Part shown: positions 1 to 6,969 of the stretch, piece by piece
Position numbering within the stretch: position 1 is the stretch's first letter
How the letters are laid out: every line of letters starts with the position of its first letter
Source: a virus
Taxonomy: Duplodnaviria > Heunggongvirae > Uroviricota > Caudoviricetes
IMG/VR virus record: IMGVR_UViG_3300003155_000382
Direction: 5' to 3' (one strand)
DNA: 6,969 nucleotides
The notes under the pieces: generated by a model
Databases searched by the model: none
What the model was told of the DNA's origin: nothing
Seen by the model: only the letters and a program-made list of their open reading frames with translations
Program-made: the position numbers and the translations under genes

Positions 1-88
1 GCGCGGGGTATGCCCCTTACTGCCACCTTTACCCATAGATAATTCCCGAAACAGTAATCAATTTTATGCGAACCATATAACGACCGCT

Positions 89-134
89 TGCAACAAAAAT
101 GCATCTGTTGTATTTCATTTGTTAAAACTTAAAT
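89..134 (+). promoter_or_regulatory. Candidate promoter region for sodC (hexamers not confidently assigned)
   Basis: TTGCAA at 89-94 and AT-rich -10-like hexamers (e.g. TTAAAT around 129-134) lie 35-80 bp upstream of the sodC ATG. A weak Shine-Dalgarno (ACGGGG) sits 5-10 nt before the ATG at 170. Pattern-based only. Confidence 0.2.
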
Positions 135-169
135 CACCTTGATTAACAACACGAAATGACGGGGTATTT

Positions 170-691
170 ATGATAAAAAAAATACTTGCTGTAACTGCGC
201 TACTTAGTGGAGCCGTAATGGCTGATACAATGACGATCCCTGTAAATCTCGTTTCCTCAGAAGGAGTAGGGAAAAATATAGGGGAAATAACTATTTCAGA
301 AACCAGCTACGGATTGCTGTTCACTCCTCATCTGAAAGAACTGCCACCAGGGTTACATGGCTTTCATATCCATGAAAATGCCAGTTGTGATCCCGGTCTG
401 ATTAATGGAAAAAAAGTGCCAGCTCTTGCTGCCGGTGGGCATTATGATCCTGAACAAACAAATAAACATCTTGGGCCGTACAATCCGGAGGGCCATCTGG
501 GTGATCTACCAGCACTCTATGTCAACTCAGAAGGAAATGCAGAAAACCCGGTTCTGAGTCCAAAAATAAAAAAAATAAGCCAGATAAAAGAACGGGCGAT
601 CATGATTCATGCCGGAGGGGATAATCATTCCGATTCACCTGCTCCTCTGGGGGGTGGGGGCGCAAGACTGGCATGCGGAATAATTAAATAA
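170..691 (+). CDS. sodC: Periplasmic Cu,Zn superoxide dismutase (SodC family), prophage-borne copy
   Basis: 173 aa with an N-terminal signal peptide (MIKKILAVTALLSGAVMA, AxA-type cleavage site). SodC hallmarks are present: HGFHIH copper-ligand motif, GGHYDP...KH...GHLGDLP zinc-loop histidines and aspartate, the disulfide cysteine pair (NASCDP and RLACG), and the C-terminal GGGGARLACGIIK with the conserved arginine. The gene is AT-rich, consistent with horizontal acquisition. Confidence 0.9.
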   Translation: MIKKILAVTALLSGAVMADTMTIPVNLVSSEGVGKNIGEITISETSYGLLFTPHLKELPPGLHGFHIHENASCDPGLINGKKVPALAAGGHYDPEQTNKHLGPYNPEGHLGDLPALYVNSEGNAENPVLSPKIKKISQIKERAIMIHAGGDNHSDSPAPLGGGGARLACGIIK

Positions 692-706
692 CAAACAGCC
701 TAAAGC

Positions 707-732
707 AATCACCGTCATAGCTGGCGGTGATT
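707..732. other. Perfect 8-bp inverted repeat (AATCACCG-N10-CGGTGATT) just after the sodC stop
   Basis: Read directly from the sequence. There is no T-run on either side, so it is not a canonical intrinsic terminator; it may be an RNA stability element or a protein-binding palindrome. Confidence 0.3.
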
Positions 733-733
733 A

Positions 734-940
734 TCAGCGACCAATAACCACAACCTGACCACCATCCCCTTCATCTGCCGTGCTGATCTCCTGAGAGACC
801 ACACGTGACCCCACGCGCAGTTCACCGTACAGAACAGGCAGAACATTGCCCTGGGCAACCAGGTTATTCAAAGGCATCCTCAACGAATGGGATTCCCTCG
901 TCGCTCTGTTGAAGTCTGAAATGAAGATACACGGAAACAA
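734..940 (-). pseudogene. Short GC-rich ORF, probably a remnant of a longer gene; function unknown
   Basis: 68 codons with a TTG start and an in-frame stop only 4 codons upstream. GC content is clearly higher than the flanking AT-rich sodC and intergenic DNA. I do not recognise the protein sequence. Confidence 0.2.
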
Positions 941-1044
941 AGCACCAGAGACTTACAGAAGAATTAGCGAGCTACGCAAGGACTAACCACAGCCTCACAC
1001 TCAATGAGGCCTGTTCATTTCTCAAGATATCCAGACCTACCATT

Positions 1045-1067
1045 GCCGCATCAATGCGGCTTTTCTT
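1045..1067 (+). terminator. Rho-independent terminator between the sodC unit and xis
   Basis: GCCGCA-TCAA-TGCGGC stem-loop (1045-1060) followed directly by TTTTCTT (1061-1067). On the opposite strand there is no T-run, so it is unidirectional (+). Confidence 0.6.
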
Positions 1068-1091
1068 GCGTGTAATTGCGGAGACTTTGCG

Positions 1092-1310
1092 ATGTACTTG
1101 ACACTTCAGGAGTGGAATGCACGCCAGCGACGCCCAAGAAGCCTTGAAACAGTTCGTCGATGGGTACGCGAGTGCAGGATATTCCCTCCTCCGGTTAAGG
1201 ATGGAAGAGAGTATCTGTTCCACGAATCAGCGGTAAAGGTTGACTTAAATCGACCAGTAACAGGTAGCCTTTTGAAGAGGATCAGAAATGGGAAGAAGGC
1301 GAAGTCATGA
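1092..1310 (+). CDS. xis: Excisionase Xis, lambda type
   Basis: 72 aa, [72 protein letters not shown]. As far as I can recall this is essentially identical to phage lambda Xis. GGAG Shine-Dalgarno at 1080-1083. The 3' end overlaps the int start by 23 bp, as in lambda. Confidence 0.95.
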   Translation: MYLTLQEWNARQRRPRSLETVRRWVRECRIFPPPVKDGREYLFHESAVKVDLNRPVTGSLLKRIRNGKKAKS

Positions 1311-2358
1311 GCGCCGGGATTTACCCCCTAACCTTTATATAAGAAACAATGGATATTACTGCTACAGGGACCCAAGGACGGGTAAAGAGTTCGGATTAGG
1401 CCGAGACAGGAGGATAGCAATCACTGAAGCAATACAGGCCAATATTGAGTTGCTATCCGGGAACAGGCGTGAGTCACTGATAGACAGAATTAAAGGCGCT
1501 GACGCAATCACTCTTCATGCGTGGCTTGACCGATATGAAACAATCCTCAGCGAGAGGGGTATCAGGCCGAAAACTCTACTCGACTACGCCAGCAAAATCA
1601 GGGCAATCCGAAGAAAATTGCCGGACAAACCGCTCGCAGACATATCAACGAAAGAGGTGGCAGCAATGCTAAACACCTACGTAGCAGAAGGTAAAGCGGC
1701 TTCCGCAAAATTAATCAGGTCAACCCTTGTTGACGTTTTTCGTGAGGCAATAGCCGAGGGGCATGTGGCTACGAATCCGGTAACAGCAACCCGCACAGAA
1801 AAATCAGAAGTAAGGCGTTCAAGACTGACAGCTAATGAATATGTCGCGATTTACCATGCAGCCGAACCGCTCCCAATCTGGCTGAGGCTGGCAATGGATT
1901 TGGCTGTCGTTACAGGGCAGAGAGTAGGCGATTTATGCAGAATGAAATGGTCAGACATAAACGACAACCATCTTCACATTGAGCAGGGTAAAACAGGGGC
2001 TAAGCTCGCCATTCCGCTGACGCTAACGATTGACGCGCTCAATATCTCATTGGCTGATACACTACAGAAATGCAGGGAGGCCAGCGGCAGTGAAACAATA
2101 ATTGCATCAACGCATCACGAACCGCTTTCCCCGAAAACAGTATCTAAGTATTTTACAAAGGCGAGAAATGCATCTGGACTCTCATTTGATGGAGACCCGC
2201 CAACATTCCATGAACTGCGCAGCCTGTCGGCGAGGCTATACCGGAATCAGATTGGCGATAAGTTTGCTCAACGTCTTCTCGGGCATAAATCAGATTCAAT
2301 GGCGGCGCGTTACAGGGACAGTCGCGGGCGGGAGTGGGACAAAATTGAAATATCATAA
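1288..2358 (+). CDS. int: Tyrosine site-specific integrase, lambda Int family
   Basis: 356 aa, the same length as lambda Int. The first ~55 residues (arm-binding domain) match lambda Int as I recall it. Catalytic residues are conserved in context: R in [10 protein letters not shown] in [13 protein letters not shown] and R in [12 protein letters not shown] in LLGHKSD, and Y in AARYRD. AGAGGA Shine-Dalgarno sits upstream of the ATG. Confidence 0.95.
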
Positions 2359-2979
2359 TGGTTTTATTTTGATTAATAATGACCAGCGCACATTAACATA
2401 TTGATAATTAATGAAATTTTTAATATACAACTTCCATGTCATAAGTTGTTGCAGACTGACTGCGCGCATTCCGTTGTCAGTTTTTGTGGCGCTTCCGGTG
2501 TGGTAGATGATGTAACGTCCCATCCATACCATTAAGTGCTGGTCATCGCCCTGATCGAAAAAAATCATATCGCCAGGCAACGCCTGGTTTATGTCCTGGC
2601 CAATAAAATGGCTGTTGTACTGAATCAAATTAATTGCGGTCACATAGGGGCCAGTTTTCCCATTCCCCTGGCTCCAGTTTTGTGCCAATTGCCGCTGTTC
2701 AGGTGTTAGCGCCATCTCCGGCGGCAGATATTGGTTAGATATGCTGTTATTTTTTAGCCATTTACTGTCATGAACTTTCAACGCCTCGTTTGCCGCAAAG
2801 CGCACCAGACCCGCGCAATCCTGCTGATACCAACGTGGGCTTGGCCCCTGACGAAGTTGTTCCTGGGCAATGCGCACAAACCAGGCACGAAATAGTCCCG
2901 ATTGTTCGACATCCAGCATTTCGCTATGGGCGAAAAAACAAAACAGCCAGCAAATCAGCGCCGACAACACGCGCCTCAT
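2353..2979 (-). CDS. yfaT: YfaT-like DUF1175 family protein; 3' end runs through the att core into prophage DNA
   Basis: 208 aa. Assigned from position and size: in E. coli K-12 the gene order is gyrA-yfaA-yfaT, all on the same strand, and YfaT is about 207 aa. Its start overlaps the yfaA stop (ATGA), suggesting translational coupling. The last ~26 codons are extremely AT-rich and lie on the phage side of the att core. Confidence 0.7.
2356..2448. other. Prophage attachment site at the int-proximal junction (attL-type: P' arm, IHF site and core)
   Basis: Starting at the int stop codon, the sequence is colinear with the lambda P' arm as I recall it from lambda attP and attL, with identical segment lengths. 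It contains three arm-type-like repeats (2356-2386), an IHF-like site, and a core CAACTT(2428-2433)-ccatgtcat-AAGTTG(2443-2448) with the same 6-9-6 architecture as lambda CAGCTT-N9-AAGTTG. Confidence 0.7.
2394..2406 (-). promoter_or_regulatory. IHF binding site candidate (H'-equivalent)
   Basis: The reverse complement reads TATCAAtatgTTA, a full match to the IHF core consensus WATCAANNNNTTR. It lies at the same distance from the core as the lambda H' site (TATCAAtttgTTG). Confidence 0.5.
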
Positions 2980-4673
2980 AATGGTTGCCAGCTAACAGGC
3001 AACCACTGCCAGGCAGCCCCGGGCTCCATCTTGACCAGTTTCATTGCATAACGGGGTTGTTGCGATAAAGCGTCCAGCTTCGGCATTAATAAAGTCTGCG
3101 CTGCGTTATAAAAAACAGGCTCAAGGTTTTTTGGCAAGCTGGCCAATGTTTCATTACGCAGTAATTTTGCCACCCCTTGTGGATTGATATAGACCGGAAT
3201 GACGCCATCAGCCGGTATTACATCCACCATTGCCGGGCGCGTTTTGTTCAGCGTTTGCAGCGCGTTATTGACCAGCGTGTCGTCAAGGGAGAAAATCAGC
3301 GTCTTGTTCTGCATCGCCAGCGAGACGCGGAAAAAATAATCGGACATCAGTTGTTCTGGTTTCGCCGCCTGGGCTGCGGGATACTGACCATAACGGGAGC
3401 TGACTTCACGCCGCCAGATTTGCGCGTCGCCCTGTTGTGTTTGCGTTACCGGCAACACACCTTCAGGTGCTTTGCTCTCGAGGGCCCCGATTGTTTGTGT
3501 AAACAGCTTCCCTGGCAGTTGCGCTTGCTCGGCAGCGCCATCAAATTGGCCAACAAACAGGGGGGTTTGCAACCTGGAATCTTCATACCAGCATAGCCCG
3601 GCAGCACCGTCCAACATCCCGCTCAATTTGTCGTTTTCCTGGCTGATATGCGAGAGCATCTCTTCGGCAATACCGTGCGAATAAGGCAGCGCCACGCAGA
3701 AGCTGGCACCAGCAGGCATACTGCGCCATACCGGAGTGAAATCAAAACTGGCATCGACACTGGCGGATTCATCATTCAACGCCAGAAAGCTGCGCCAGCC
3801 ATCATTGCTCATTTCAAAGCGCACGCCAGCAAAAGAAGGAATTAACCGCTGGTAACCTAAACCCAGCAAATTAGCGCTAACCACGATACGCTGGCGAACA
3901 AGTGTTTTTTCAGCGGAGGATTGTAAACGGTCTTCCAGGCCAAAGCTGGCCTCCCAGTGTTTTTTCCCGCTCAACAAATCACTCGCGATCGCCGTGGCTT
4001 CGGTATCCTGCTGGTCGCCTTTAAACAACATATCTGTGCTGGAAAAAACCAGCATCTTGTCCTGATAACGGGTAAACAGCAGTGAGTTATTGCCGTTATA
4101 GCGCAGTTGATAAACAGGTATGGTTTCATTATTAATCGTAATGCTACTGATCTCCGTCTTACTTAACTGGCTGTCGCTGGTGGCGGCAAACAGTAACGGC
4201 TCCAATAACTTACTCAAACCACTGCGTTGAATCAGCACGATATAATGCGAGAGATGGCCTTGTTTGTCGTGCCACAGCGCCGCTTGCGCTGGCTGGTCTA
4301 ACAATGAAGAAAAGAGCTTATCTTTCAGCGTTAAATCATGTTCATACACAATGCGCCGAATACTACCTTCAATCCCCAGACGGTCAGCATGGTTCTGATA
4401 ATAAAAAACAAAATCTTCACTTAGAACATCGCGCAGAAAAGGAATTGTGAGGAGGTCTTTGGGAAGCTGGCTTAACGAATCGCTGTCGAGAAAGAGGTCC
4501 GGCTCATTGAGATCGATTTGCAGATTGTTGTGCACCACCAGAGGCGACAACGTTTTTTCTGGCCCACTGCCAGCATATTGCAATGCCCAGACACCCGCGG
4601 AAAGCAGTGCTATTGCGCCAAAACCTACAAGACCATAAAACCGCCAGCCTTTCGCCCTTTTTTCACCACTCAT
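2976..4673 (-). CDS. yfaA: YfaA-like DUF2138 family protein (N-terminal membrane anchor)
   Basis: About 565 aa, lying immediately downstream of gyrA as in E. coli K-12. The likely start is the ATG at 4671-4673, which has an AGGAA Shine-Dalgarno 7 nt upstream; the GTG two codons further up (4677-4679) has no usable spacing. The N-terminus has a hydrophobic segment ([22 protein letters not shown]). The stop overlaps the yfaT start. Confidence 0.7.
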
Positions 4674-4780
4674 TGCCACATTCCTTGTGTAAAGCCAGCC
4701 ATTTTTTACGGGCGATGCAAAATTTTCTCGCGCCTTAATACAACAAAAGCCCAGACTTTGCAGCCTGGACTTTTCAATTC

Positions 4781-4804
4781 AAAAAAGGGAGATTACTCCC
4801 TTTT
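4781..4804 (-). terminator. Rho-independent terminator of gyrA
   Basis: GGGAG-ATTA-CTCCC hairpin (4787-4800), extendable by A:T pairs, about 20 nt after the gyrA stop. On the minus strand it is followed by TTTTTT (complement of A6 at 4781-4786). Confidence 0.65.
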
Positions 4805-4821
4805 GGCATGAAGAAATAAAA

Positions 4822-6969
4822 TTATTCTTCTTCTGGTTCGTCGTCAACGTCCACTTCCGGAGCGATTTCATCGTCCCCTTCCGCTGCGCTGCCGTCAATA
4901 GCATCCAGATCTTCATCGTCAACTGGTTCTGCAACACGTTGCAGCCCCACCACGTTCTCCCCTTCTGCAGTACGGATAAGGATCACGCCCTGGGTGTTAC
5001 GGCCCACGATGCTGATCTCCGACACGCGAGTACGGACCAGCGTCCCCGCATCAGTGATCATCATGATCTGGTCGCAGTCATCAACCTGCACCGCGCCAAC
5101 CACTAAACCGTTACGTTCGGTAACTTTGATGGAGATGACCCCTTTCGTCGCACGCGACTTAGTTGGATACTCCTCCACCGCGGTACGTTTACCGTAACCG
5201 TTCTGCGTTGCAGTAAGGATTGCGCCATCGCCGCGCGGCACGATCAGAGAGACGACTTTATCGCCTTCACCTAAACGGATACCGCGAACACCGGTAGTGT
5301 TGCACCCCATTGCGCGGACGGAAGACTCTTTGAAGCGCACCACTTTACCTTCGGCGGAGAACAGCATCACTTCGTCTTCACCGCTGGTCAGGTCAACGCC
5401 GATAAGTTCATCGCCTTCAACCAGTTTGATCGCCACTTTACCAGCAGTACGCAGGCGGTTGAATTCGGTCAGGACCGTTTTCTTCACGGTACCGTTAGCG
5501 GTCGCCATGAAGACTTTCACGCCTTCTTCAAACTCGGTCACCGGCAGGATCGCAGTGATACGTTCGTCCTGCTCCAGCGGCAGCAGGTTGACTATCGGAC
5601 GACCACGCGCGCCACGGGTCGCTTCCGGCAGTTGATAAACTTTCATCGAATAGACGCGACCACGGCTGGAGAAGCACAGGATATGATCGTGGGTGTTCGC
5701 CACCAGCAGTCGGTCGATAAAGTCTTCATCCTTAATACGTGCGGCAGATTTACCTTTACCGCCACGACGCTGCGCTTCGTATTCAGAAAGCGGCTGATAT
5801 TTCACATACCCCTGATGAGAGAGCGTGACAACAACATCTTCCTGAGTGATCAGATCTTCCAGGTTGATATCTGCGCTGTTGGCAGTGATTTCCGTGCGGC
5901 GTTTGTCACCGAACTGTTCACGAACCAGCTCCAGCTCTTCACGGATCACTTCCATCAAGCGATCGGCGCTGCCAAGAATACGCAACAGTTCCGCAATCTG
6001 ATCCAACAACTCTTTATATTCATCGAGCAGTTTTTCATGCTCAAGGCCGGTCAGTTTCTGCAAACGCAGATCCAGAATCGCCTGAGCTTGCTGCTCGGTC
6101 AGATAGTACAGCCCGTCACGCACGCCAAACTCGGGTTCCAGCCATTCTGGACGCGCAGCATCGTCGCCAGCACGTTCCAGCATTGCGGCAACGTTGCCCA
6201 GCTGCCACGGATTAGCAACCAGTGCGGTTTTCGCTTCTGCCGGGGTTGGCGCATGACGGATCAGTTCAATGATCGGGTCGATGTTCGCCAGCGCCACAGC
6301 TAATGCTTCAAGGATATGCGCACGGTCACGGGCTTTACGCAGTTCGAAAATGGTACGACGGGTCACCACTTCGCGGCGGTGACGAACAAACGCAGCGATG
6401 ATGTCTTTCAGGTTCATGATCTTCGGCTGACCATGGTGCAATGCCACCATGTTGATACCGAAGGAAACCTGCAACTGGGTCTGGGAGTAGAGGTTGTTGA
6501 GCACCACTTCACCGACCGCATCGCGTTTAACTTCAATCACGATGCGCATCCCGTCTTTGTCAGACTCGTCACGCAACGCGCTGATGCCTTCCACGCGTTT
6601 TTCTTTTACCAGTTCCGCAATTTTCTCGATCAGACGCGCTTTGTTCACCTGATACGGAATTTCGTGGACGATAATAGTTTCACGCCCGGTTTTGGCGTCA
6701 ACTTCCACTTCAGCACGCGCACGGATGTACACCTTACCGCGACCGGTACGGTAAGCTTCTTCGATACCACGGCGACCATTAATGATCGCTGCCGTCGGGA
6801 AGTCCGGCCCCGGGATGTGTTCCATCAGCCCTTCAATGCTGATGTCTTCATCATCGATATACGCCAGACAACCGTTGATGACTTCCGTCAGGTTGTGCGG
6901 CGGGATGTTGGTTGCCATACCTACGGCGATACCGGAAGAACCGTTCACCAGCAGGTTAGGAATTTTGGT
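4822..6969 (-). CDS. gyrA: DNA gyrase subunit A, 5'-truncated by the window edge
   Basis: The translation matches E. coli GyrA from about residue 161 ([27 protein letters not shown]...) to the acidic C-terminal tail (...[19 protein letters not shown]). The gene continues beyond position 6969. The first in-frame start in the ORF track is not the true start. Confidence 0.97.

Follow-up and report, generated by a model that had tools for sequence, protein, structure and literature searches.

Phage-borne genes for Cu,Zn superoxide dismutases are known from prophages of Salmonella and of Escherichia coli O157:H7. The sodCI gene of the Gifsy-2 prophage is regulated by PhoP. Even with the lytic genes of the prophage silent, sodCI is expressed at a high level (PMC7067206). 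In E. coli O157:H7, sodC-F1 and sodC-F2 (CP-933R/V) encode a periplasmic Cu,Zn superoxide dismutase additional to the chromosomal sodC, and the phage SodC of these lambdoid prophages, which is made in log phase, gives protection from oxidative challenge (PMC2569942).

Here we analyse a further sodC gene, found in a stretch of 6,969 nucleotides (the window). As read from its sequence, the window contains the right-hand end of a lambdoid prophage remnant of ~7 kb, which is lodged at the 3' end of the yfaT gene of Escherichia albertii, an emerging enteropathogen. Our overall explanation, to which we assign a probability of about 0.85, is that sodC is a moron of the slot between tail genes I and J, that a deletion left the remnant at yfaT, and that the first of two A tracts in the gene is a slippage hotspot. 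The features on which this explanation is built are collected in Table 1.

Table 1. Features of the sodC locus and its surroundings, in window coordinates.
Feature	Position	Strand	Remarks
J, tail-tip/host-specificity gene, 5' end	1-36	-	start codon 36-34; MGKGGSKGHTPR...; continues past left window edge
sodC upstream spacer	37-169	+	AT-rich, 33% G+C; identical in 40 aligned copies
sodC, periplasmic Cu,Zn superoxide dismutase precursor	170-691	+	intact ORF, 173 aa
A8 tract 1	175-182	+	codons 2-5, ATA AAA AAA ATA; length-polymorphic
A8 tract 2	568-575	+	codons 133-136, ATA AAA AAA ATA; rarely polymorphic
G6-T-G5 stretch	649-660	+	codes conserved GGGG loop; third indel hotspot
11-bp stem-loop, 3' end of cassette	707-732	+	15 nt past sodC stop; terminator-like, without U-tract
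Tail assembly gene I, 3' fragment	734-867	-	last 44 codons; stop codon 734-736
Deletion junction	866-867	.	I homology ends 867; 434/HK022-like homology begins 866
434/HK022-type region upstream of xis	867-1091	+	95-98% identical to phages Gally, HK022, 434
Terminator of int-xis region	1045-1067	+	hairpin GCCGCA-TCAA-TGCGGC then TTTTCTT
CII site TTGCGTGTAATTGC of pI promoter	1067-1080	+	matching position annotated in phage 434 record
xis, excisionase, 72 aa	1092-1310	+	Pfam PF07825, E = 3.9e-41
int, lambda-type tyrosine integrase, 356 aa, intact	1288-2358	+	Arm-DNA-bind_1, SAM-like and Phage_integrase domains (Pfam)
attL core CTTCCATGTCATAAG	2431-2445	.	within 3' end of yfaT (DUF1175)

Judged by homology, the gene is a secreted Cu,Zn superoxide dismutase carried as a phage moron. 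Its product matches Pfam Sod_Cu (PF00080; E = 1.6e-32, 113.2 bits against a threshold of 28.9) and the NCBIfam SodC equivalog NF007628 (214.5 bits, cutoff 165), and its best relative of solved structure is Salmonella SodCI (6d52/1eqw, E = 7e-68). The solved relatives align with it end to end, with the mature SodCI chains starting from residue 19-20; the metal ligands (six His and one Asp) are conserved, the motifs HGFHIH, AGGH, KH..GHLGD and MIH being aligned, and so is the disulfide Cys pair (NASC, LACG). By inspection, the N-terminus holds a putative Sec-type signal peptide, MIKKILAVTALLSGAVMA, in which a KK n-region precedes a hydrophobic core and V-M-A serves as the cleavage motif, with DT following and no lipobox Cys. 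An earlier note, made from the letters of the window, had proposed a secreted Cu,Zn superoxide dismutase about 400 bp from xis, and both proposals are borne out, the distance from the sodC stop (691) to the xis start (1092) being 400 bp. The note had also advised placing the protein by search among its phage relatives: the closest characterised phage SodC is SodCIII (66.7% identity), followed by SodCI (61.0%) and the Stx2-phage SodC (57.1%). By analogy with Gifsy-2 SodCI and O157 SodC-F, for which this role has been shown, the product, exported by Sec, would detoxify exogenous superoxide.

The exact protein occurs on 324 contigs, most of them named E. albertii, and a literature search returned no paper tying this species to sodC in a relevant way. 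At the megablast level the cassette is absent from all 5,426 complete E. coli genomes, and this collection is therefore unusable for tract statistics. A 25-mer upstream of tract 1 had no match in representative genomes, and a metagenome scan for the locus returned one locus only.

The two A8 runs reported by the earlier note are both present. They are copies of the same 12-mer, ATAAAAAAAATA, coding for I-K-K-I, and a further run (A7) lies at 409-415. The probability of two A8 runs is 0.0007 from base composition, 0.007 from shuffled codon order, and 0.27 under synonymous-codon permutation, which preserves the protein sequence and the codon usage of this gene; all 12 Lys codons of the gene are AAA and 8 of its 15 Ile codons are ATA. 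The tracts thus arise because I-K-K-I motifs are written in AT-rich codons. The closest homologues (71-73%) have AAGAAAAAAA or AAAAAG at site 1 and RITKL, with no tract, at site 2, while sodCI, sodCIII and the Stx2-phage sodC contain no runs of at least 7; a tract kept beyond coding need, or conserved in relatives, is not seen.

Comparison of tract lengths across isolates, which the earlier note had recommended, showed that tract 1 varies. Among 43 copies it is A8 in 31, A7 in 10 and A6 in 2; A9 is absent from these 43 copies, contractions being the only changes. The length alleles stand on seven SNP backgrounds, four of which also occur in the A8 state with an identical haplotype. Comparing a contracted copy over 6.4 kb with its nearest A8 relative (L014 with L010, L023 with L034) shows no indel other than that at tract 1. 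With A6, A7 or A9 at tract 1 there is no in-frame start before Met17, and an in-frame upstream start rescuing the signal peptide in the A7 alleles was sought and none was found. Tract 1 hence combines two traits of contingency loci, a frame-setting homopolymer in the 5' coding region and length polymorphism on otherwise identical backgrounds. Tract 2 is A8 in 40 of the 43 copies and A7 in three (L044, L045 and L046), which were recovered solely through a look-up of the predicted truncated product of tract 2. Alleles of tract 1 are, as a rough estimate, 10 times commoner than those of tract 2, though the 12-mer is the same (2/13 against 0/13 where sampling ignored ORF integrity, and, for the two truncated products, 130 database blocks against 3), an excess not predicted by neutral decay at equal rates. 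In a collection of 15 billion proteins, the predicted tract 2 products of A6, A9 and A10 and the Met1-read product of A7 were absent, and the Met17-initiated A7 product was the only predicted variant found.

Other length differences were observed in the same set of loci. L044 and L046 are shortened at both tracts, and L016 shows a second homopolymer difference, A5/A6, 2.5 kb from tract 1. The G6-T-G5 stretch, missed by the earlier note, appears as G12 (L007, L019, L033), G15 (L030), G9AGG and G9TGG, and the frameshifted products P0001, P0125, P0126 and P0128 are without the C-terminal Cys.

We read tract 1 as a mutational hotspot and not as an established switch. Replication slippage would have contracted it repeatedly to A7 or A6, putting the start codon and the signal peptide out of frame and giving alleles that are probably null or leaky; such alleles would arise in a species with several copies of the cassette. 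The on/off switching by slippage envisaged by the earlier note is not supported here, with contractions only and with tracts that codon usage explains and that the closest homologues lack. The static data nevertheless fit both reversible switching and recurrent loss-of-function mutation, and cannot separate them. A true contingency locus, in which reversible A8<->A7 slippage toggles superoxide dismutase export and maintains mixed populations, would draw on the occurrence of A6, A7 and A8 over seven haplotypes, four of them also as A8, on A7 alleles lying in otherwise intact tail modules (L017, L023, L043) with the rest of the ORF intact, on the greater variability of tract 1 relative to the identical tract 2, and on a tract directly after the start codon, the classic position for translational phase variation. 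A8 would then be a working switch in E. albertii prophages, reversed by slippage back or by -1 ribosomal or transcriptional slippage on A-AAA-AAA, and the excess at tract 1 would reflect selection. We consider this unlikely, given that only contractions and no A9 were seen, that the tracts are predicted by codon usage (P = 0.27) and are not conserved in the nearest homologues or in sodCI, sodCIII and the Stx2-phage sodC, that a genome with several copies of the cassette loses little by a null allele, and that A8 is shorter than the 9 nt from which selection against slippery A/T runs is evident in many bacterial genomes (PMC1088944). Were it true, lysogens would keep a mixed population for a phage-borne periplasmic superoxide dismutase, and a virulence-type prophage gene would be under homopolymer control in an Escherichia species. 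To our knowledge, homopolymer control of such genes has rarely been reported in Escherichia.

Equally improbable, in our estimation, is that the differences in tract length are sequencing or assembly artefacts and that all real copies are A8. Homopolymer under-calling usually runs toward contraction, the only direction seen here; several of the A7/A6 loci come from complete genomes, possibly obtained with long reads (CP117556, CP117678, CP117590, CP043266), and both the A5/A6 difference in L016 and the double shortening in L044 and L046 would be expected from such errors. However, A7 was also found in small-contig drafts and metagenome assemblies from several projects (L014, L030, L033, L039, L041), whose contig sizes suggest short reads, L014 and L023 differ from the nearest A8 copy over 6.4 kb by no indel except the contraction of tract 1, and tract 2, the same 12-mer, is unaffected in 13 copies sampled regardless of ORF integrity. 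Assembly error could account for some of the length differences, and recurrent slippage at a hotspot remains our reading of tract 1.

The sodC cassette measures 696 bp (37-732) and fills exactly the gap between I and J, on the strand opposite to both. In phage PhiR26_1, which has no sodC, homology to the window breaks off at the J start codon (36) and resumes at the I stop (733 onward), and I and J are 59 bp apart; at the start of J the match is 97% and goes exactly as far as the ATG. J homologues of 1137-1159 aa occupy the corresponding position in loci L004-L013. The I fragment is 94-96% identical to annotated tail assembly protein genes of E. coli prophages and phages, and is continuous with full-length I (PF06805) in the same loci up to window position 867-873. 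Full-length I and J flank the cassette in 9 of the 10 E. albertii loci retrieved with the identical protein. The G+C content is 33% in the spacer, 44% in sodC and 56% in the I fragment. Applying the moron concept in the sense of Juhala et al. (2000), we found extra DNA between genes that are adjacent in relatives, with a base composition unlike that of its neighbours; we read sodC as a conventional moron, a low-G+C cassette made of spacer, ORF and stem-loop. The earlier note had also called the gene a moron, and was right as regards a discrete low-G+C insert, here located between I and J, but the terminator it named is no part of the cassette and its candidate promoter was not confirmed. Its remark that the position beside the recombination module is unusual does not hold, the actual place being the tail I/J slot, as for Fels-1 sodCIII and the Stx2a-phage sodC.

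The spacer contains a weak GGGG Shine-Dalgarno-like element at 161-164. A sigma-70 consensus scan and a relaxed scan of 37-169 gave no match of at least 9/12. The candidate promoter placed by the earlier note at 89-134 cannot be singled out: its best reading, TTGCAA(88-93)-N17-TATTTC(111-116), reaches 7/12, below the scan threshold and no better than other 7/12-8/12 pairs in this AT-rich spacer. A PhoP-box pattern with 3 mismatches gave 22 matches against 14.7 expected, which is not above chance, and the match at 109-125 is therefore meaningless. The upstream regions of four phage sodC lineages (window, sodCI, sodCIII and Stx2-phage) could not be aligned and contain no conserved block. Being antisense to the tail operon, sodC needs a promoter of its own, and the spacer presumably holds it; the layout and the relatives suggest that the gene is transcribed independently. 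The failure of the scans to locate a promoter and the missing U-tract of the stem-loop count against this. Since the cassette points against late transcription, a lysogen may express sodC with the tail operon shut off.

At the 3' end of the cassette, the segment 686-760 folds with a minimum free energy of -16.1 kcal/mol (z = -3.5; 0/200 shuffles as stable). The stem-loop is followed by AUCAGCGACC and ends one base before homology to the sodC-less phage resumes (733). The hairpin with a T-run that the earlier note had assigned to sodC as its terminator does exist at 1045-1067, but not in the cassette: it begins 354 nt past the sodC stop, beyond the tail-gene fragment and the deletion junction, and matches the terminator annotated just upstream of pI in the phage 434 record (PMID 6305007). 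Together with the pI/CII site it belongs to the native controls of int-xis, and in the remnant it may also stop read-through from sodC.

The junction was placed by a three-way comparison of the window, intact I (L004) and phage 434 (L002). It was spanned by no complete E. coli genome or phage record among those searched, and a 19-mer taken from gene I and ending at the breakpoint gave only chance matches to unrelated taxa in representative genomes; L024-L027 and L029 share this junction. Between the junction and xis lie the 3' part of an 'ORF114' homologue (ending at 986), a hairpin at 992-1010, the terminator and the CII site. An ORF at 734-940 (68 aa) has no Pfam match; it is a chimera of the tail of I and antisense 434-like DNA. 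The int gene has near-identical counterparts (99.7% at the DNA level) in the yfaT prophages of O26, O111 and O103 E. coli. A direct repeat of the attL core, CTTCCATGTCAGAAG, is found 7,074 bp leftward in L025, adjoining yfaS (core repeat of 15 bp), with AT-rich phage arms on the inner sides of both core copies. The Int domains, Xis, a pI/CII site after a terminator and att repeats identify a lambda-type recombination module. As to the host, none of the 5,426 complete E. coli genomes exceeds 93.7% identity to the gyrA portion, and the protein names point to E. albertii.

A large internal deletion would have taken out everything from the 5' part of I onward, including the genes for head, lysis, replication, immunity and recombination, ending ~225 bp short of xis and bringing the cassette to its present 400 bp from xis-int. 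The proximity of sodC to xis-int results from a join at 866/867 between the 434-like DNA upstream of xis and what is left of I, its 3' end, and their adjacency is, on this comparison, a deletion scar. That sodC was instead acquired directly into the distal pL or recombination region beside xis-int, to which a shared strand of sodC, xis and int, a spacing of 400 bp and an intervening terminator might point, is rejected by the junction analysis as extremely improbable, given that the cassette is separated from the junction by 134 bp belonging to the 3' end of I and is bordered on its other side by the start of J, that homology to xis-bearing phages begins only at 866, and that 9 of 10 loci with the identical protein hold the cassette between full-length I and J. 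The ~7-kb remnant keeps int, xis, sodC, an NleG-type effector gene and a 440-aa ORF, while nearly all virion, lysis, replication and immunity genes are gone and just 191 aa of J are left in L025, a gene content consistent with retention of useful cargo.

These findings illustrate how gene order in a single window can make a deletion scar look like unusual architecture, and they mark the I/J tail slot as a place where sodC cassettes have landed repeatedly, in three lineages, those of Fels-1, of Stx/O157 phages and of E. albertii phages. The recurrent A7/A6 alleles divide automatic annotation between 173-aa and 157-aa products, and offer a cheap experimental handle on homopolymer-driven variation in an Escherichia prophage gene.

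Among systems with slippery runs, of which Shigella mxiE is an enterobacterial example, homopolymer phase-variable genes resemble sodC in a tract placed right behind the start codon, with length alleles that put the ORF out of frame; the window tract differs from those of contingency genes in being short (8), in varying by contraction only and in not being conserved. Of the phage sodC genes, Fels-1 sodCIII (STM0924) of Salmonella, the closest characterised one, shares slot and orientation, lying between gpI and gpJ homologues antisense to the tail operon, and its DNA match extends through sodC into gene I; unlike the window, Fels-1 is a complete phage, its sodCIII has no homopolymer of at least 6, and its upstream region is not alignable. 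The sodC of Stx2a phage EH2201, 57.1% identical at the protein level, is likewise lambdoid prophage cargo in the I/J slot on the opposite strand, but has no long A runs. Gifsy-2 sodCI is also an antisense moron of the tail module, although it lies between lom/M and L, and its regulation by PhoP contrasts with a window spacer in which PhoP boxes do not exceed chance. The O157 SodC proteins carry a lipid-modification signal (PMC2569942), whereas the signal peptide of the window protein has no Cys. Finally, the int-xis module is of the type of phages 434 and HK022, matching them in xis, int, the CII site and the terminator upstream of pI (95-98% DNA identity upstream of xis, and 79% to 434 over the whole module), but in the window it breaks off 225 bp before xis, where a tail-gene fragment is joined to it, and is served by an att site in yfaT.

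The coding features of the window are collected in the table below. Its host is Escherichia albertii rather than E. coli, because the gyrA portion shows no more than 93.7% identity to each of 5,426 complete E. coli genomes, the exact SodC protein occurs on 324 contigs that are mostly labelled E. albertii, and three E. albertii-type records, including CP007025.1, match the entire 6,969-bp window at 99.94%. In a metagenome scaffold (L027) carrying the same remnant, sodC through yfaA diverge from the window by 0-0.35%, while against window 4680-6969 gyrA diverges by 6.5% and the yfaA-gyrA spacer by 10.6%, a step that suggests that recombination has its boundary here, or that the remnant region moved from one lineage to another.

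Coding features of the window, with strand and basis of assignment
Feature	Position	Strand	Basis	Remark
gene J start	36-1	-	ORF listing	product N-terminus MGKGGSKGHTPR
sodC	170-691	+	ORF listing, family search	
short ORF	ends at 734	-	ORF listing	
xis	1092-1310	+	ORF listing, family search	
int	1288-2358	+	ORF listing, family search	
yfaT	2353-2979	-	ORF listing, family search	DUF1175
yfaA	2976-4679	-	ORF listing, family search	DUF2138
gyrA	from 4822	-	ORF listing, family search	

In DNA searches, the left part of the window fell into three pieces without relation to one another. Positions 1-36 and 733-870 form the first, matching the start of the lambdoid tail gene J and the end of the lambdoid tail assembly gene I; the second, 866-2400, matches the xis-int end of HK022/434-like phages, as well as yfaT prophages of O26, O111 and O103 E. 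coli (99.7%). The third, holding sodC between 36 and 733, gave no megablast-level match in complete E. coli genomes. The sodC-less phage PhiR26_1 aligns as far as the J start codon (36); its alignment resumes at the I stop codon (733), the two stretches being separated by 59 bp of its own DNA. Therefore, the sodC cassette spans 37-732, exactly intergenic, with sodC antisense to I and J. Full-length I (190-200 aa) and J (1137-1159 aa) flank the identical protein in 9 of the 10 retrieved E. albertii loci, these nine being complete tail modules, and type III secretion effector genes lie past the tail fibres in E. albertii loci with the identical SodC. The earlier note rightly placed the known phage sodC genes in the tail region, and the position next to xis-int, which it considered unusual, is explained away, since the window gene sits in the tail region as well.

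The adjacency of sodC and xis is the scar of a deletion which, judging from the usual lambdoid gene order, would have taken K through the head, lysis, replication, immunity and recombination genes. In a three-way comparison, I homology stops at 867, leaving the last 44 codons only, and 434-type homology starts at 866, within the ORF that precedes xis in phage 434. The CP007025.1 element, from yfaS to yfaT, holds a 440-aa ORF, an NleG-type effector gene, tail-fibre scraps, 191 codons of J, sodC, the I fragment, and xis with int. A distance of 7,074 bp separates the two copies of a 15-bp core, CTTCCATGTCAKAAG, each flanked by an AT-rich phage arm on its inner side. The prophage has thus shrunk to ~7 kb. 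Integration lies inside the 3' end of yfaT (window 2353-2445): phage DNA supplies the final ~26 codons of the 208-aa ORF, whose stop codon overlaps the int stop region. A 68-aa chimeric ORF created by the deletion (734-940, minus strand; no Pfam match) joins 24 N-terminal residues, read antisense from the 434-like region, to the final 44 of I. The sister genome L006 (CP117580.1) carries the same remnant without xis and nearly all of int: at its positions 10694-10697, window 1-866 (100% identical) is fused to 2309-6969 through GTTA microhomology (window copies at 863-866 and 2309-2312), and this second deletion has its left end 0-4 bp from the first junction (866/867), a coincidence. The 440-aa ORF (L025 4653-5975; also in L006, L008, L011 and L024) had no Pfam or NCBIfam match; it recurs, with NleG-type effector genes as neighbours, both in the remnant and at the tail-fibre end of these prophages.

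Regarding expression signals, a sodC promoter had been proposed at 89-134, and was not confirmed: the candidate TTGCAA-N17-TATTTC is a 7/12 match, and several other pairs in the 33% G+C spacer score at least as high. The hairpin and T-run proposed as the sodC terminator (1045-1067) are real, but we reassign them to the int-xis control region, because the phage 434 record annotates a terminator (PMID 6305007) abutting the CII-dependent pI promoter, which extends into the xis start, and these map, shifted by an alignment offset, to window 1046-1068 and 1067-1098, respectively; a CII site, TTGCGTGTAATTGC, is found at 1067-1080. The cassette itself ends in an 11-bp stem-loop (707-732), 15 nt after the sodC stop, folding at -16.1 kcal/mol (z -3.5) and without a U-tract. 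In the remnant, the 434-type terminator would halt any sodC read-through ahead of xis.

Two A8 runs had been correctly located in sodC, at 175-182 (tract 1, codons 2-5) and 568-575 (tract 2, codons 133-136); an A7 run is also present at 409-415. For the assessment of length variation, 43 cassette copies were gathered along five routes: four proteins (the exact 173-aa form, the 157-aa product starting at Met17, a designed truncated product, and Int), and viral and metagenome contigs that contain a 25-mer from upstream of tract 1. The variation anticipated in the earlier note was found at tract 1, which reads A8 in 31 copies, A7 in 10 and A6 in 2; tract 2 reads A8 in 40 and A7 in 3, with no A6 there and no A9 at either tract. 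The spacer is otherwise identical across 40 aligned copies. Seven backgrounds, distinguished by SNPs or the G tract, carry A7 at tract 1, and four of them are also found as A8; therefore, the contraction arose repeatedly, or was spread by recombination. Between L014 and L010, and between L023 and L034, tract 1 is the sole indel in 6.4 kb, and its variation does not appear to be general sequence sloppiness. Nonetheless, part of the variation may be decay or error, since L016 has another homopolymer difference near tract 1, and both tracts are short in L044 and L046. The full set is subject to sampling bias; among copies sampled regardless of ORF integrity (n=13), A7 was present in 2 at tract 1 and in none at tract 2.

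Tract 1 alleles of A6, A7 or A9 have no in-frame start upstream of Met17 (ATG at 218-220), which falls two residues short of where the signal peptide is cleaved, so these alleles are predicted to be unable to export SodC unless the frame is restored. GGAG at 208-211, eight bases upstream as measured to the A of the ATG, gives Met17 a better Shine-Dalgarno match than the true start has in its GGGG. Gene callers for Logan and ENA assemblies choose Met17 for copies with an A8 tract 1 as well, and therefore 157-aa database entries mix A8 with A7 and A6 alleles. The A7 tract reads A-AAA-AAA, and AAA-AAA reportedly allows ribosomes to shift frame by -1 in E. coli (PMC1851650); such a shift would put the allele back in frame, so A7 alleles may be leaky. 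The conserved GGGG loop is encoded by a G6TG5 stretch (649-660), which reads as unbroken G12 or G15 in some copies (L007, L019, L030, L033), and databases contain frameshifted SodC products without the C-terminal Cys (P0001, P0125, P0126, P0128); this site is a third hotspot, potentially more slippery than the A tracts.

As to why the tracts exist, two A8 runs are unexpected against composition alone (P=0.0007), and expected with the protein and the gene's codon usage fixed (P=0.27). The gene uses AAA for 12 of 12 Lys and ATA for 8 of 15 Ile, and each tract encodes I-K-K-I. At site 1, the nearest homologues (71-73% identity, outside phage tails) read AAGAAAAAAA or AAAAAG, and at site 2 they read RITKL; runs of at least 7 are absent from sodCI, sodCIII and Stx2-phage sodC. 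Selection against slippery A/T runs is evident from 9 nt in many bacterial genomes (PMC1088944), whereas these runs are 8 nt. We conclude that the tracts are by-products of drift in an AT-rich gene, and that tract 1 behaves as a mutational hotspot. The on/off switching by slippage suggested previously retains the tract 1 length alleles in its favor, and their excess over tract 2 is the sole observation that simple neutral decay leaves unexplained; a programmed switch at tract 1 stays the minority reading.

The product itself appears to be a bona fide Cu,Zn superoxide dismutase, matching Pfam Sod_Cu (E 1.6e-32) and the NCBIfam SodC equivalog (214.5 bits; cutoff 165). Its best solved relative is Salmonella SodCI (E 7e-68), with every metal-ligand motif and both cysteines aligned, and mature SodCI chains aligning from residue 19-20 of the product. 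The closest non-phage homologue, 71% identical (L056, CAJGEW010000022.1, 3001-3519), has plasmid-like surroundings (CcdA/CcdB and a TraD fragment); therefore, sodC cassettes of this clade would also travel outside phage tails. With identities of 67% to SodCIII, 61% to SodCI and 57% to Stx2-phage SodC, the window gene is a new lineage within a familiar class of phage cargo, in a known slot of a degraded prophage. Slot and orientation are those of Fels-1 sodCIII and Stx2a-phage sodC, whereas Gifsy-2 sodCI, likewise antisense, sits two genes off. There is no lipobox cysteine in the signal peptide, MIKKILAVTALLSGAVMA, in contrast to the O157 phage enzymes, whose sodC-F genes have a role in peroxide resistance, with expression in log phase and under anaerobic conditions (PMC2569942); sodCI is one of the few genes of Gifsy-2 with high expression in lysogens (PMC7067206).
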